Positions 49,846 through 54,777 of a DNA stretch of 64,000 nucleotides are shown here, one piece after another. The stretch is taken from positions 41,971 through 105,970 of the forward strand of contig CAVUDA010000012.1 in the NCBI GenBank assembly GCA_963740035.1, written 5' to 3'. The position numbers and the translations under genes are program-made. The notes below the pieces were generated by a model. The model searched no databases, was not told the DNA's origin, and saw only the letters and a program-made list of their open reading frames with translations. The DNA is from an uncultured Acidobacteriota bacterium. GTDB taxonomy: Bacteria > Acidobacteriota > Terriglobia > Acidiferrales > UBA7541. Numbering within the stretch: position 1 is the first letter of the stretch; every line of letters starts with the position of its first letter.

Positions 49846-49883
49846 AGTGAGACCAATCACATTTCGGAGTGAGGGGAGTCACA
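49846..49883. promoter_or_regulatory. Two tandem CRP-type palindromes (aGTGAgaccaaTCACa and aGTGAggggagTCACa), centres 22 bp apart
   Basis: Both cores are perfect (49846-49861 and 49868-49883). They lie in the divergent intergenic region between the PRTase operon (start 49775, minus) and the LPKTAS-protein gene (start 50170, plus). Confidence 0.6.
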
Positions 49884-50169
49884 AGCCACGATGTGCCGCC
49901 TGCCCTAGTAGCTTCGCCATAAATGCGAGCCTAGAACGCCTGGCGCGCTCCTGAATAGCGCGTGTCACAGGAGAAAGATGATGAATAGGCGATGATGGGA
50001 GTGTTTCGCGCCGGTGACGCGGACCACTTGCAGTTGTGCGCGCGGTCACATACCCAAAAGCGGGACGCGAGTACACGTATAACAGGTACGAACGGAGCCG
50101 ATACAAGAGACGTAAGGGCGGGCCGAACTTGGGAGCTGGCATCCGTCGTCACAATCAGGAGGCAGGAAA

Positions 50170-50835
50170 ATGAAAATATTCAGAACGATCCTAACAATTT
50201 TCACAGTCTCATTACTTATGGTCACGTTTGCGGCGGGCGCACGCGCGGATACAGGGTTCAACAAGCGAACCGTGGTCACCTTTAACCAGCCCGTCGAGAT
50301 TCCCGGTCAAATTCTTCCCTCGGGGACTTACACCATCGAACTGTATGAGAGCTTTGGCAGCCGCCATATCGTGCGCATTTACAACGCCGACCGGTCCAAG
50401 CTCATCGCAACCGTGCTGGCGATTCCGAACCAGCGGCTCACGCCAACCAGCGACAACGTGATGAAATTCTCAGAGCGGCCCGGTAATGCTCCGGATGCAC
50501 TGAAGGCCTGGTTCTACCCGGGGAACAACTTTGGCCAGGAGTTCGTCTACCCGAAGGCGCGCGCGGTTGAGCTCGCCCAGGTGACGCACGAAACCATTCC
50601 CGCAGTGGAAACCGAGCCCGCGACCATCGAGGAATTCAAGAGCGAGCCCATCGTTGCGGAAACTCCCGAGCAGAAGGAAGTCCCGATCGCCGAGGCGATT
50701 CCTGCGCCGGCCCCGGAAACTCTGACGGCTGCTCCGGCTCTGCCGAAGACGGCCAGCCAGGTTCCGCTCATCGCGCTGCTTGGCATGCTGTCGGTAACTT
50801 TCGCTTTCATGCTGAAGCGGTGGCTTGTTAGCTGA
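50170..50835 (+). CDS. Secreted protein with C-terminal LPKTAS sorting-signal-like tail (candidate sortase substrate)
   Basis: Signal peptide, a 120-aa globular domain of unknown family, and a Pro/Glu/Ala-rich linker. Then LPKTAS, a 20-aa hydrophobic stretch and KRW, which is the tripartite cell-wall-sorting-signal layout. Confidence 0.6.
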   Translation: MKIFRTILTIFTVSLLMVTFAAGARADTGFNKRTVVTFNQPVEIPGQILPSGTYTIELYESFGSRHIVRIYNADRSKLIATVLAIPNQRLTPTSDNVMKFSERPGNAPDALKAWFYPGNNFGQEFVYPKARAVELAQVTHETIPAVETEPATIEEFKSEPIVAETPEQKEVPIAEAIPAPAPETLTAAPALPKTASQVPLIALLGMLSVTFAFMLKRWLVS

Positions 50836-51907
50836 TCACCATGAACGCGACGAAACTCCAATGCGCCGCGGGCAAGAGTTGCTGCTCTGGCCCGCGGCGC
50901 AGGGAGGTTCTACTGTGAATCTTGCGACTTCATCGCGCGAACCAATCTCCCGCGGCTGCGGCATTTTCGCCGTGGCTGTGCTCTTGTGCGCGGCTGCGGC
51001 CTATGCGCGCACGGCTCAATCCGCACAGTCTACCTCCGCAGGCCAAGGCACAATTTCCGTGGAGACTGCGCTGGTAGTGCTCCCAGTTCGCGTAACCGGC
51101 GCGGACGGTGATTTCGTTTCCGGACTGGCACAGGAACGCTTTCGCGTTTACGAGGACGGCCGGTGGCAGCCGATTACACTTTTCCGGCAGGAAGATACTC
51201 CGGTGACGGTGGGCTTGGTGGTGGACCACAGTCGCAGCATGGGTCCGAAGCTCTCGGGCGTGGCTGCCGCGGTTTCAGCCTTCGCGCAATCGAGCAATCC
51301 GGACGATGAAATGTTCGTGGTGGACTTCAGCGACAACGTGTCGGTGGAACTGCCCGGAGGAAAACCCTTCACCAGCAATCCTCAGGAGCTGGCACAGGCC
51401 GTATCGGCGGTCTCCGCGCGCGGAATGACCGCGCTCTACGACGCCGTGGCCGAAGGGTTGAATCATCTGCAACTCGGCCGGTGGGATAAGAAGGCGCTGA
51501 TCATCGTCAGCGACGGCGGCGACAATGCCAGCGGGCGAAAGTACGCAGACGTCTTGGAGCTGTCACGCCAATCGCAGGCGGTGATTTACGCGATCGGACT
51601 GGTCGGCGCACCTGAAGAAGAAAACCCAGGAGTCCTTCGGCGGCTATCCAAAGACACAGGTGGATTGGCGTTCTTTCCGGCGCAAGGGGAATCGATCTCA
51701 GACATCTCCTCGAGGATCGCGCACGATCTCCGCGAGCAATACACGCTGGGATTCACGCCGGAAAAGAGAAACGACGACTCGTTTCGGAAAATTCATGTAG
51801 AAGTGACGGCTCCCGGACTGGGCAAACTGCAGGTGCGGACGCGCTCCGGCTATTCCGCCGCGGCGCTGAAGCGGCCCGTGGCCGGAGCGAGCAAGGGCCA
51901 GTCATGA
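50825..51907 (+). CDS. von Willebrand factor A domain protein (Acidobacterial VWFA-related, TIGR03436-like)
   Basis: N-terminal anchor, VVLPVRVTGADGDFVSGLAQERFRVYEDGRWQPITLF, and MIDAS-like VVDHSRSM. The start is ambiguous (50825, ATG 50861 or GTG 50915). No C-terminal sorting signal. Confidence 0.8.
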   Translation: MLADHHERDETPMRRGQELLLWPAAQGGSTVNLATSSREPISRGCGIFAVAVLLCAAAAYARTAQSAQSTSAGQGTISVETALVVLPVRVTGADGDFVSGLAQERFRVYEDGRWQPITLFRQEDTPVTVGLVVDHSRSMGPKLSGVAAAVSAFAQSSNPDDEMFVVDFSDNVSVELPGGKPFTSNPQELAQAVSAVSARGMTALYDAVAEGLNHLQLGRWDKKALIIVSDGGDNASGRKYADVLELSRQSQAVIYAIGLVGAPEEENPGVLRRLSKDTGGLAFFPAQGESISDISSRIAHDLREQYTLGFTPEKRNDDSFRKIHVEVTAPGLGKLQVRTRSGYSAAALKRPVAGASKGQS

Positions 51908-52542
51908 GAGTGACCATCGCCATGAGCCAGGACGGAGAAGAATTGAGGGGGCGGATGCTTCGCGCGGCCTACTACGCGTTTCTGGTGGCCGGGATCATGG
52001 CACTTAGTTATGCGGGCTATGCCGTGCTGGACCGTTACTGGTTTCAGGGCATCGAGACGTCGAAGTTTGAAACGGTCAGCACGCCGGCCGAGCTGCCCAC
52101 AGTCGAGGCGGCTCCAATTGCAGAAGGTGGCGTGATCGGCGAGATCGAAGTCCCGCGCCTGGGATTGAAAGCGATTGTCGTGCAGGGCGATTCGGAGAAA
52201 CTGTTGCGGCGCGCGGTGGGGCATCTCCCGGAAACCGCGCTTCCCGGCGAAGCAGGAAACGTCGCCCTGGCGGGCCATCGCGACAGTCTCTTCCGGCCGC
52301 TGCGCAACGTCCGTCCGGGCGACACAATCACTTTGCGGACGCCGGACCGGGAATTCCAGTACGAAGTGGAATGGACCGCGGTAGTCCCTCCGACGGCGGT
52401 GCGGGTGATCCAACCGACGACGGAGCCGGCACTGACGCTGGTTACGTGCTTTCCGTTTTACTACGTCGGAGCGGCACCGGATCGATTCATCGTTCGCGCG
52501 CGCAAAATCGCGGTTGCACCGAAGGCGCCGAGCGCGCCCTGA
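51904..52542 (+). CDS. Sortase-family transpeptidase
   Basis: N-terminal TM anchor, catalytic His context NVALAGHRD, catalytic Cys TLVTCFP, and a downstream Arg (RFIVRA). The ATGA overlaps the vWA stop. Confidence 0.85.
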   Translation: MRVTIAMSQDGEELRGRMLRAAYYAFLVAGIMALSYAGYAVLDRYWFQGIETSKFETVSTPAELPTVEAAPIAEGGVIGEIEVPRLGLKAIVVQGDSEKLLRRAVGHLPETALPGEAGNVALAGHRDSLFRPLRNVRPGDTITLRTPDREFQYEVEWTAVVPPTAVRVIQPTTEPALTLVTCFPFYYVGAAPDRFIVRARKIAVAPKAPSAP

Positions 52543-52714: not shown

Positions 52715-53194
52715 ATGATTACGCGCTCCATGATCTTGCTTGCTGCTTTGTTCTATGTCGTCACTGCAGCCGGCGCCAAAGATCACTCACCTGTGGAACA
52801 GACGCAGTTTCCATCAGCCTATGTTCCTTCGGGTGAGACAATGTTCAAGCAATATTGCTCCGCCTGTCACGGCGCCGACGGCAAAGGCGGCGGCCCAGTC
52901 GCGTCCGTGCTCAAAATACCGCCGCCAGATCTCACCACGCTGGCCATGCGTCATGGCGGCAAATTCCCGTACGAATATGTCTCTTCGGTTCTTCGGTTTG
53001 GGCCAGGCGTTTTCGCTCACGGCTCATCGGACATGCCCACATGGGGACCTATTTTCAATTTCATGGACAAGTACAACGAGCGCTCTGTACAACAACGCAT
53101 CATGAACCTTACCGGTTATCTGGCATCTCTGCAGCAGTGGGTGATCGCTGACCGGTCGACGGACTTCTTCGAGAGCCCGTCCGCACGACATTAG
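52715..53194 (+). CDS. Class-I c-type cytochrome (paralog B)
   Basis: CSACH, PPDLTTLAMRHGGKFPYEYV, MPTWG. Collinear with paralog A but with a 20-aa C-terminal extension. Confidence 0.85.
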   Translation: MITRSMILLAALFYVVTAAGAKDHSPVEQTQFPSAYVPSGETMFKQYCSACHGADGKGGGPVASVLKIPPPDLTTLAMRHGGKFPYEYVSSVLRFGPGVFAHGSSDMPTWGPIFNFMDKYNERSVQQRIMNLTGYLASLQQWVIADRSTDFFESPSARH

Positions 53195-53268
53195 TTGTAC
53201 TTTGGTTTGAATGGACGCACTGCAGTCAATCAGACTAAAGCACGGAAAGTTTCACTTGGAGGCCCTTG

Positions 53269-53703
53269 ATGTCCGTGCGATTTATTCGCGATGCCTTTGT
53301 GATCTGCGCGCTGCTCGGATCGACTGCCAGCCTCCATGCCGCACAGCAAGAGCAAGTCAAAAAGGCTCAGGCCAGCCTTCCAAATTCCCCAACTGGCGAT
53401 GAACTGTACAAGAAACACTGCGCAGTCTGCCACGGCAACGATTTAAAGGGAGTTAGCCCAGTCCCCGCCCCATACAGAGTGCCGCCAGATCTGACCACGT
53501 TGGCCCGGCGCCACGGCGGCATATTCCCTGACGCCTATGTTGCGGACGTGCTTCGGAATGGCGTGACCATGCCTGCGCATGGCCCCGCTCAGATGCCAAT
53601 CTGGGGAACAGATTTTACGGAGATGGACGGATTAGACGCGACTCAGGTCAAAATACGGATTGCTAGTCTGGCGAACCACATTAAATTACACCAGGCAAAA
53701 TAA
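53269..53703 (+). CDS. Class-I c-type cytochrome (paralog C)
   Basis: CAVCH, PPDLTTLARRHGGIFPDAYV, MPIWG. More diverged than A and B. Confidence 0.85.
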   Translation: MSVRFIRDAFVICALLGSTASLHAAQQEQVKKAQASLPNSPTGDELYKKHCAVCHGNDLKGVSPVPAPYRVPPDLTTLARRHGGIFPDAYVADVLRNGVTMPAHGPAQMPIWGTDFTEMDGLDATQVKIRIASLANHIKLHQAK

Positions 53704-53907: not shown

Positions 53908-54777
53908 ATGCTAAAAATTGGCAGGATTCTTCTCCCGATCGATTTCGGGGATCCATCGAAGCAGGTGGTTCATCAGGCCGCGGTTCTAGCCCGCCACTTC
54001 CATTCCGAGATCGTGATGTTGCACGTGGTGACGCCGCTGAGCTATTCCGCGGGCATGATCGAGGGGGGTTATGTGCCCGCTAACCTGGGCGATCTGCTCC
54101 AGGAACTCATCCGCCAGGCTCAGAAAAATCTCGATCAGGCTCTGGGGCCCGAGTTCGATGGGATTGATGTTAAGCGCATGCTGCTCGAGGGTGATCCGGC
54201 GCTCACCATCGTGAAAACAGCCAGCGCCGAAAAAGCTGATTTGATCGCCATGCCGACGCACGGCTACGGTGCGTTTCGCCGCTTCCTCCTGGGTTCGGTG
54301 ACGGCAAAAGTCCTTCACGATAGCGATTGCCCCGTGTGGACCGGCGCTCATTTGGAAGAAGGGCCCGCCCGCGAATTTTCGATTCGCAACATCCTCTGTG
54401 CGGTTGATTTGAGCCCCCATAGCTCCAAGACATTCCAGTGGGCCGCGCAGATGGCCGCTGATTTTGGCGCCCGGCTGACCCTTGCTCATATCACTGCAGG
54501 CATGGAAATCTTTGGGCCTGGGCCCTACCAAGTGGACCCCTCCTGGACAGAGGCTCTTGTAAATTCCGCCAACCGCCAGCTCGCAAATCTTCAGCAGGAG
54601 GTAGGCACTAAGGCCGAGATATTCATCGGCAGTGGTGATGTGCCCAAGCTGTTGAGCTATGCGGCACAGCAAACGAGTGCGGATGTGCTCGTGATTGGCC
54701 GGCCCTCGAGCGGGCGCCTGCGAGCCACCGGCTATGGGATCATTCGCGAATCATCTGTTCCTGTCCTGAGCGTCTGA
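53908..54777 (+). CDS. Tandem-domain universal stress protein
   Basis: Two Usp domains (ILLPIDFGDPS...MPTHGYGAFRRFLLGSVTAKVLHDSDCPVW, and ILCAVDLSPHS...VIGRPSSGRLRATGYGIIRESSVPVLSV). Confidence 0.9.
   Translation: MLKIGRILLPIDFGDPSKQVVHQAAVLARHFHSEIVMLHVVTPLSYSAGMIEGGYVPANLGDLLQELIRQAQKNLDQALGPEFDGIDVKRMLLEGDPALTIVKTASAEKADLIAMPTHGYGAFRRFLLGSVTAKVLHDSDCPVWTGAHLEEGPAREFSIRNILCAVDLSPHSSKTFQWAAQMAADFGARLTLAHITAGMEIFGPGPYQVDPSWTEALVNSANRQLANLQQEVGTKAEIFIGSGDVPKLLSYAAQQTSADVLVIGRPSSGRLRATGYGIIRESSVPVLSV

Follow-up and report, generated by a model that had tools for sequence, protein, structure and literature searches.

The window analyzed here is a 64,000-nucleotide (nt) stretch of contig CAVUDA010000012.1 from an uncultured Acidobacteriota bacterium. 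At positions 50170–52542 it carries three genes, which code for a small secreted protein with a C-terminal sorting signal (the substrate), a protein with a von Willebrand factor A (VWA) domain, and a sortase. These genes probably form a dedicated sortase-substrate cassette that works in the periplasm of a diderm soil acidobacterium. A fuller picture is put forward tentatively: the sortase may fix its dedicated protein to periplasmic peptidoglycan or to a diderm-specific acceptor, and the fixed protein may dock the soluble VWA protein, which has a metal-ion-dependent adhesion site (MIDAS) and resembles inter-alpha-inhibitor heavy chains (ITIH). This would give a two-part wall-anchored complex under Crp/Fnr-type control.

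Sortases are textbook enzymes of Gram-positive walls; since 2001–2004 they have also been recorded, here and there, from Gram-negative bacteria. To our knowledge no acceptor or function is established for the Gram-negative enzymes. The class GN ('marine proteobacterial') sortase system is reportedly associated with Comfort and Clubb in 2004. The review literature lists only a handful of proteobacterial sortase cases (PMC8225981). A first-pass annotation of the window, made by a model from the sequence, had described the earlier diderm systems as computational and VWA-linked, in agreement with Haft et al. 2011 (PMC3237569).

Pairing and co-inheritance of substrate and sortase genes

The host genome (5.8 Mb in 34 contigs, 92.8% complete) encodes LpxC (327 bits). 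It therefore makes lipid A and the host is diderm, as had been presumed. There are exactly two sortase genes in this genome. A motif screen of all host open reading frames (ORFs) found exactly two LPxT[A/G]-hydrophobic-basic tails, with the motifs LPKTAS and LPHTAS, and when 51,246 ORF C-termini were searched with a tail hidden Markov model (HMM) made from relatives only, these two proteins were picked out again (E = 7.7e-12 and 9.8e-9; next best, 0.68). Both tail-bearing genes are situated upstream of the host's only two sortase genes, each pair adjacent. The genome search that the first-pass annotation had proposed for a one-sortase/one-substrate relationship thus gives two sortases, two tails and two adjacencies. 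Its choice of the small LPKTAS protein as substrate agrees with this count, and the VWA protein has no tail.

The second pair is part of a paralogous substrate-VWA-sortase copy outside the window (contig C19:706613-709411). It consists of an LPHTAS substrate with 50% identity to that of the window, a 359 amino acid (aa) VWA protein and a 211 aa sortase, with the same ATGA-type overlap. The two host cassettes are not sisters on any of the three gene trees and represent old, coexisting paralogous lineages. Two cassettes are likewise found in several metagenome-assembled genomes (MAGs), and in one MAG they share a contig at a distance of about 10 kb (L110, L112).

Relatives of the substrate are numerous. 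A metagenome protein collection yields 4,606 proteins at E <= 0.001, and a relative is encoded in at least 590 species-representative genomes, of which nearly all are MAGs. The MAG labels are Acidobacteriota, Terriglobia, Ca. Acidiferrum, Bryobacteraceae, Vicinamibacterales or Polarisedimenticolia. The records L093, L104, L159 and L171 are labelled Verrucomicrobiia, Candidatus Dormiibacterota or Heliomicrobium and have cassettes 47–88% identical to that of the window; the labels of these MAGs look doubtful, or the bins mixed.

Gene order, tails and upstream boxes were counted in the 79 best loci of close relatives (L093-L171). The order substrate-VWA-sortase is found in 73 of these and substrate-sortase in 2. 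Two others have a contig end too near, one shows the substrate alone and one substrate-VWA, the last two without a recognisable sortase. The first-pass annotation had asked whether orthologues keep the tail and whether they occur without a neighbouring sortase. The [LMI]PxT[AGN] motif is kept in 77/79 close relatives, with P and T in all 77 readable tails. A sortase adjoins the full-length substrate orthologues in 75/79 related loci, and likewise in 21/21 members of the window's substrate family (family A) in a sample of the phylum described below. The consensus of the 77 tails is L-P-x-T-[A61/G15]-S73-x-[LVIM]-P75-L76-[I]-A, and the family tail extends 26–45 residues from the motif to the C-terminal end. 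P192 and T194 of the window protein are invariant in an 18-sequence alignment, and S196 is at least 90% conserved in both alignments.

These counts bear on the view that the C-terminal segment is a mere membrane anchor, close to a sortase by coincidence. Such a view would be compatible with the fact that cleavage is read from sequence, and with the weakly basic tail of the paralogue, but it is hardly credible given two sortases, two tails and two adjacencies among 51,246 C-termini, the P and T present in every one of the 77 tails read, the adjacency in 75/79 related loci and in 21/21 family members of the phylum sample, and the co-diversification of substrate and sortase.

The co-diversification is seen in four groups that recur on the sortase, VWA and substrate trees. 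The first consists of the window copy, L047 and L008; the second of the host paralogue, L016 and L049 (and L055); the third of L075, L054, L057 and L062; and the fourth of L034, L011, L013, L025 and L035. Since the three gene trees agree, the cassette is inherited as a unit.

The phylum sample consists of 401 evenly sampled Acidobacteriota genomes from 228 genera. Sortases are present in 72 of the genomes (18%) and in 59/228 genera, with 92 hits in all. Neighbourhoods of about 4.5 kb on each side of all 92 hits show an adjacent co-oriented gene with an [LMI]PxT-type tail at 70 of the sortase genes, and the sortase-adjacent substrates fall into 19 sequence clusters. Family A has 21 loci and always lies upstream of the sortase. 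A second substrate family, found at 15 loci mostly downstream of the sortase, consists of 225–414 aa proteins with mostly LPKTGS motifs; its loci include L010, L012, L023, L027, L029, L031, L033, L040, L053, L059, L060, L073 and L086. At least 16 further small clusters or singleton substrates occur in the sample. At nine loci (L037, L039, L041, L044, L052, L061, L070, L078, L082) VWA proteins of 650–1045 aa carry their own LPxTA-T-P tail. Thus the class GN 'marine proteobacterial' system, judged by these sequences, also appears common in Acidobacteriota.

Homologues of the N-terminal domain of the substrate also exist without the tail, either as secreted proteins of 164–191 aa (L174-L176) or with about 300 aa added at the C-terminus (L172, L173). 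A sortase neighbour is absent beside all of them (L172-L176), and therefore the sorting signal acts like a suffix that a family may have or lack. With no nucleophile at hand, sortases such as SrtA hydrolyse their substrates, and the window enzyme could accordingly be mainly a protease that cuts LPKT/AS with water and releases a soluble periplasmic protein with no covalent anchoring. The free secreted forms L174-L176 fit this, in that the domain can work unanchored. However a signal peptide suffices for release into the periplasm, so that an enzyme and a conserved 30-residue tail, kept across hundreds of species, make the explanation unparsimonious, and characterised sortases are all transpeptidases in vivo (PMC8225981). 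Hydrolysis as the main activity is thus considered unlikely, and transfer to an acceptor is the preferred reading.

The three gene products

The three ORFs that the first-pass annotation had listed were all recovered on the + strand (Table 1). It had called the genes overlapping or nearly so. The ATGA at 51904-51907 is indeed common to the VWA stop and the sortase start. The overlap of substrate and VWA genes, present in the maximal VWA ORF (50825-51907, from TTG 50825), is probably not real. GTG 50915 is preceded by a GGGAGG site, 8 nt before, and the VWA ORFs of relatives start about 80 nt past the substrate stop and are about 330 aa long. On these grounds GTG 50915 is the most likely VWA start, 80 nt after the substrate stop and without overlap.

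Table 1. Features of the cassette and of its upstream region, in window positions
Feature	Position	Strand	Remarks
Perfect tandem Crp/Fnr-type boxes GTGAGACCAATCAC, GTGAGGGGAGTCAC	49847-49860, 49869-49882		GTGA-N6-TCAC, centres 22 bp apart
Proximal box pair GTGACGCGGACCAC, GTGCGCGCGGTCAC	50014-50027, 50036-50049		One mismatch each; 156 and 134 nt upstream of substrate ATG
Shine-Dalgarno AGGAGG	50157..50162	+	7 nt before substrate ATG, predicted from sequence
Substrate gene, family A	50170..50835	+	221 aa; secreted protein of unknown fold with C-terminal sorting signal
Substrate signal peptide, residues 1-26	50170..50247	+	Predicted by eye from sequence, conservation and model helix 2-22
Mature globular part of substrate, about residues 27-178	50248..50703	+	Beta-rich, one helix 129-139
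Sorting motif L191-P-K-T-A-S196	50740..50757	+	Predicted cut T194/A195; family consensus LPxT[A>G]SxxPL
Hydrophobic helix QVPLIALLGMLSVTFAFML, then basic tail KRW(LVS)	50758..50832	+	Model helix 200-220
VWA/MIDAS gene, TIGR03436 subfamily	50915..51907	+	Likely start GTG 50915, 330 aa
MIDAS motif D104-H-S106-R-S108	51224..51238	+	Numbered from GTG 50915; T172 and D200 complete the site
Class-D-like sortase gene	51904..52542	+	212 aa; start overlaps VWA stop
Sortase N-terminal membrane anchor, about residues 21-42	51964..52029	+	Preceded by R15, R17, R20
Catalytic His125 (LAGHRD)	52276..52278	+	Aligned to 2LN7
Catalytic Cys182 (TLVTC)	52447..52449	+	Aligned to 2LN7
Conserved Arg194 (PDRFIV)	52483..52485	+	Aligned to PDRYII segment of 2LN7

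The 221 aa protein ends in the LPKTAS motif, hydrophobic stretch and KRW that had been pointed out at first reading. Together with the N-terminal signal peptide it thus shows the full tripartite sorting-signal layout of a motif, about 20 hydrophobic residues and a basic C-terminal end. The signal peptide is predicted to end with A24-R25-A26, and A26-D27 hardly varies among relatives. The curated anchor models PF00746 and TIGR01167 do not match the window substrate at E <= 0.01, and a weak PF00746 match is found in just 6/58 substrate relatives (best E = 6.8e-4).

Conserved motifs of the mature substrate are LP(A/S)GTY, AWFYPG and GQEFVYPK. An AlphaFold2 model based on a 58-sequence alignment is of fair quality, with a predicted local distance difference test (pLDDT) score of 80.5 and a predicted TM-score (pTM) of 0.69. 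It displays a beta-rich body with strands at 33-87, the helix at 129-139 and more strands to residue 172, all at pLDDT of about 85-95. The loop 91-120 has low confidence in the model yet is conserved and holds the invariant F100, E102 and W114-G118. The fold had been described as unknown, and no relative emerges from the PDB, either by Foldseek comparison of the model (best E = 0.38) or by a profile search of PDB sequences, which gave one chance hit. The Pfam family DUF2911 matches the substrate below threshold, as it does 39/58 members. The Pro/Glu-rich stalk of the first-pass annotation needs to be shortened, as most of it is predicted to be folded. Residues 122-176 are conserved with pLDDT of about 85-95 and include the N-terminal part of the Pro/Glu-rich stretch, where A163, T165, P166 and E170 are conserved positions. 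The flexible-looking spacer is limited to about 12 residues before LPKTAS (178-190).

The sortase gives 111.9 bits to PF04203 (sortase superfamily, peptidase C60; gathering cut-off 26.6). The best PDB sequence match is 2LN7, a Bacillus anthracis class D enzyme (E = 3.4e-20), followed by 4D70, SrtD of Clostridium perfringens (6.6e-17). The His and Cys motifs of the first-pass annotation both align to 2LN7, and a conserved Arg aligns as well. By the positive-inside rule the catalytic domain would lie on the periplasmic side. Among NCBIfam models NF058671 ('class D sortase, LPxTATN-specific') ranks first with 138.9 bits against a cut-off of 140, followed by the class D model NF033746 (126.9; cut-off 165), the class E model (90.6; cut-off 160), TIGR03784 of class GN (83.2; cut-off 158.25) and the class C model (70.5; cut-off 160). 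Two relatives, L008 (150.6) and L016 (140.4), exceed the NF058671 cut-off. Ten other acidobacterial sortases were scored. All those beside small substrates rank class D first (118–151 bits, two above the cut-off), and the two beside tail-bearing VWA proteins (L039, L044) are class GN (TIGR03784, 202–217 bits).

On the sortase tree the nine sortases adjacent to tail-bearing VWA proteins fall in a well-supported 19-row clade, which otherwise consists mostly of sortases with a large VWA gene upstream. The window type belongs to the other clade. The class references in the tree are two class D fragments from PDB alignments; their position inside the window's clade is weak evidence, as their branches are long. 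By these sequence comparisons the window sortase appears class-D-like, formally a near-miss to class D, and not class GN. 'Class-D-like' is used rather than 'class D' because the scores fall just below the cut-offs. Class D ("subfamily 4") sortases recognise LPxTA and are often encoded beside their substrate (PMC3617157; PMC8225981). The Ala-Ser that the first-pass annotation had singled out, where LPxTG has Gly, is present but is thus no oddity: it is expected of a class D-type signal, since these enzymes use LPxTA, and orthologues alternate between A and G.

The VWA protein matches TIGR03436 ('acidobact_VWFA') with 185.8 bits (cut-off 81.25) and PF00092 with E = 3.2e-12. Its C-terminus, …RPVAGASKGQS, has neither a sorting motif nor a helix. 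The acidobacterial type and the missing sorting signal of the first reading are thereby upheld. The membrane anchor that it had assigned reads instead as a signal peptide: from GTG 50915 the N-terminus is MNLATSSREPISRGCGIFAVAVLLCAAAAYA|RTAQS, which by eye gives a 31-residue signal peptide ending in AYA|RT (…CAAAAYA|RT). It is most likely a cleavable Sec signal peptide rather than a permanent membrane anchor, and the protein would be soluble in the periplasm.

Each of the MIDAS residues D104, S106, S108, T172 and D200 is shared by 95% or more of 81 cassette VWA proteins, and a 50-sequence alignment shows no variation at any of the five. A model (pLDDT 82.9) shows a beta-sandwich formed from N- and C-terminal strands, plus the VWA domain. 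Among its long structural matches, 4FX5 and inter-alpha-inhibitor heavy chain 1 (ITIH1, 6FPY) rank best. The host genome holds 17 TIGR03436 paralogues, the cassette VWA among them. Cassette VWA proteins form one subclade of TIGR03436 with 96% support in the SH-like approximate likelihood ratio test (SH-aLRT), with a single non-cassette paralogue nested inside. Three of the paralogues are clustered on contig C9 (57.3-60.7 kb), and two form an adjacent pair on C34 (724.0-725.9 kb), of which one member nests inside the cassette VWA subclade with no sortase nearby.

In a further alternative the sortase joins the substrate to another protein. The bond could be made with the VWA protein, at its N-terminus or at a Lys, or else with a Lys of a following substrate copy; the latter would give a pilus-like polymer with a VWA adhesin. 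VWA domains are frequent in tip adhesins of Gram-positive pili, the conserved …EFVYPK motif resembles the YPK pilin motif, and the three genes are co-inherited. Against this, 5/21 family members have E, Q, R or N in place of K129 in VYPK, no Lys is conserved at 95% in the 81 cassette VWA proteins, and the mature N-termini of these are not conserved either. The VWA protein has no sorting signal and is missing from 13/21 cassettes, there is one tail-bearing gene per cassette, and class C suits the sortase less well than class D does (70.5 bits with the class C model; cut-off 160). The data weaken the ligation and protease alternatives to different degrees, and ligation to a protein appears quite improbable. 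Two candidate forms of it were rejected: a pilus of the class C type, since the VYPK Lys is not invariant and the class C cut-off is missed, and the VWA protein as covalent acceptor in a general mechanism, since it has no Lys at 95% and no conserved N-terminus.

Proposed mechanism and comparison with known systems

In the mechanism proposed here, the 221 aa protein would be exported by Sec, and its C-terminal helix and KRW tail would keep it for a short time in the inner membrane. The neighbouring sortase, held by its N-terminal helix with the catalytic domain in the periplasm, would cut between Thr194 and Ala195 of LPKTAS by means of Cys182 and pass the Thr carboxyl to an amine. The likeliest acceptor would be the meso-diaminopimelate side chain of peptidoglycan or lipid II, as in the class D system of Bacillus, so that the protein would become covalently fixed to the thin periplasmic wall. 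The co-translated VWA protein would be a soluble periplasmic MIDAS protein and not a substrate; through its metal site it would most likely bind the anchored protein, or a ligand shared with it, non-covalently. Its role as a non-covalent, metal-dependent partner is proposed because its stop overlaps the sortase start, its phylogeny is common to the cassette, and its MIDAS is conserved. Since the sorting signal of the class GN system is on the VWA protein itself, the trio would correspond to that system in split form. A Crp/Fnr-type regulator would probably control expression.

The acceptor could also be an envelope molecule specific to diderms, i.e. a lipid, an amine of lipopolysaccharide (LPS) or exopolysaccharide, or an outer-membrane protein, which would tether the substrate to the outer membrane or display it there. 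The present data do not fix the acceptor. The extended SxxPL tail and the near-miss to the class D HMMs show divergence from the Bacillota relatives, and the exosortase and rhombosortase systems of diderms use routes other than peptidoglycan (PMC3237569). However no conserved neighbour of the cassette codes for an outer-membrane transporter or for an enzyme that would build an acceptor, and the closest characterised enzymes attach their substrates to peptidoglycan. An acceptor of this kind is rather unlikely, and peptidoglycan is kept as the preferred one.

Several points weigh against the cassette and its mechanism as proposed. Peptidoglycan, most likely as it is, is put forward by analogy with the class D enzymes of Bacillota, and the window sortase lies just under both class D HMM cut-offs, though these models rank first. 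A full-text literature search found no paper on acidobacterial sortases. The tail of the host paralogue (…FTKVLA) has one basic residue, a weaker stop-transfer signal. In one genome (G154, L177) the only tailed family-A protein is 21 kb from the only sortase, and in another (G049, L178) substrate and VWA genes are followed by an unrelated convergent gene, with the sortase at the start of another contig. The VWA gene is separate and present in 8/21 family-A cassettes and absent from 13/21. VWA presence tracks substrate residues K32, E43, E102 and E170, but this correlation is confounded with phylogeny and is a lead only.

The last two points concern the VWA protein. Since it is missing from 13/21 cassettes, the sortase reaction cannot depend on it. 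Members with a VWA gene group together on the substrate tree, which requires 2 state changes, and an apparent loss (L008) is nested within this group. Two-gene versions are found in a few near-complete assemblies of 1–3 contigs, with L054, L057, L062 and L075 as examples of the two-gene form in near-complete assemblies. The VWA gene thus appears to be a lineage-specific addition, optional across the wider family. Co-occurrence of all three families across Acidobacteria, which had been suggested as a check, holds for the pairing of substrate and sortase and extends to the VWA gene in part of the cassettes.

The closest known systems are the class D sortases of Bacillota (SrtC of B. anthracis, 2LN7; SrtD of C. 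perfringens, 4D70; Bacillus subfamily 4), which give the best structure and NCBIfam matches. They share the LPxTA-type signal, the frequent location of the enzyme gene beside its substrate (PMC3617157), the N-terminal membrane anchor and the His/Cys/Arg set. Unlike these, the cassette has a diderm host with LPS, an enzyme just under the class D cut-offs, a signal extended to LPxT[AG]SxxPL, a substrate of a new family of unknown fold, and a VWA/MIDAS gene between substrate and sortase.

The class GN system (TIGR03784 with a VIT/VWA target) is likewise a dedicated one-enzyme, one-target Gram-negative system with adjacent genes and a VWA/MIDAS protein (PMC3237569), and the ITIH-like fold of the cassette VWA protein has the same broad architecture as its vault/ITI-type targets (PMC3237569). 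It differs in that the window sortase gives it 83.2 bits against 158.25 and belongs to a different clade, and in that the cassette VWA protein has no sorting signal, which is carried by a separate small protein.

Exosortase/PEP-CTERM, rhombosortase/GlyGly-CTERM and archaeosortase/PGF-CTERM show the same tripartite C-terminal signal of motif, helix and basic cluster. There too dedicated pairs tend to be adjacent and the signal is an optional suffix on a domain family (PMC3237569). Their enzymes are unrelated polytopic membrane proteins, whereas the cassette has a sortase-fold cysteine transpeptidase. Operons for Gram-positive sortase pili likewise bring together a sortase, a VWA protein and a protein with an LPxT tail, and the substrate here has a VYPK-like motif. 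In contrast to pili, the cassette has one tailed gene and a VWA protein devoid of a sorting signal, the Lys of the motif varies, and the sortase is not of class C.

Close copies of the cassette genes are already labelled by public pipelines as "class D sortase", "sortase A", "hypothetical protein" or "LPXTG cell wall anchor domain-containing protein". What appears new in this dedicated Gram-negative system, by sequence comparison, is that the sortase comes from a different lineage, the substrates form a new family, and the VWA partner is a separate protein. The cassette is a clean and very widespread Gram-negative case, with one enzyme to one target and a target small enough for experiments. 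The identity of the acceptor would tell whether sortases serve diderms to attach proteins to periplasmic peptidoglycan, as an alternative to lipoproteins linked by L,D-transpeptidases, and would also show the role of the VWA/MIDAS partner both in this cassette and in the class GN system. If the anchored docking complex is real, it would be a new way of tethering Gram-negative envelope proteins, widespread in soil Acidobacteriota. An enzyme specific for LPxT[AG]SxxPL could also serve as a new ligation tool.

Upstream boxes and neighbouring genes

The two tandem CRP-type boxes that the first-pass annotation had placed beside the locus are real and perfect. They are situated between the divergently oriented genes, 301-323 nt before the substrate ATG, and are nearer to the PRTase gene. 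The window contains 7 perfect GTGA-N6-TCAC boxes, as compared to 0.64 expected by chance. A second, conserved pair lies 134–156 nt upstream of the substrate gene. The block around these proximal boxes can be aligned with the corresponding sequences of relatives, and in several relatives the boxes at this place are perfect. Across the 79 related loci, the 450 nt preceding the substrate gene show a 15-fold enrichment of perfect boxes (31 in 35 kb as against 36 in 606 kb), which occur there in 20/79 loci. Genes of the Crp/Fnr family are located within 4 kb of 18/73 cassettes. A promoter and terminator scan gave nothing above background. Thus the cassette is probably controlled by a Crp/Fnr-type regulator, as far as the box sequences indicate.

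Directly downstream of the sortase are two tandem mono-haem cytochrome c genes and a tandem-domain Usp gene (52715-53194, 53266-53703, 53908-54777). Upstream and divergent are the PRTase gene and a gene of the erythromycin-esterase family. This neighbourhood would fit a stress or low-oxygen regulon.

No further gene is common to all cassettes; the commonest neighbours occur in at most 31/73 loci and are absent from the window. Among neighbours seen elsewhere, a secreted protein of about 237 aa, SYLF/Ysc84-like by eye, is encoded downstream of the cassette in 30/73 loci, and a Gln/Pro/Lys-rich secreted protein is encoded upstream in 29/73. A protein of 380–450 aa is encoded upstream in 20/73 cassettes, and a similar-looking 380 aa ORF is found just downstream of the host's second cassette.

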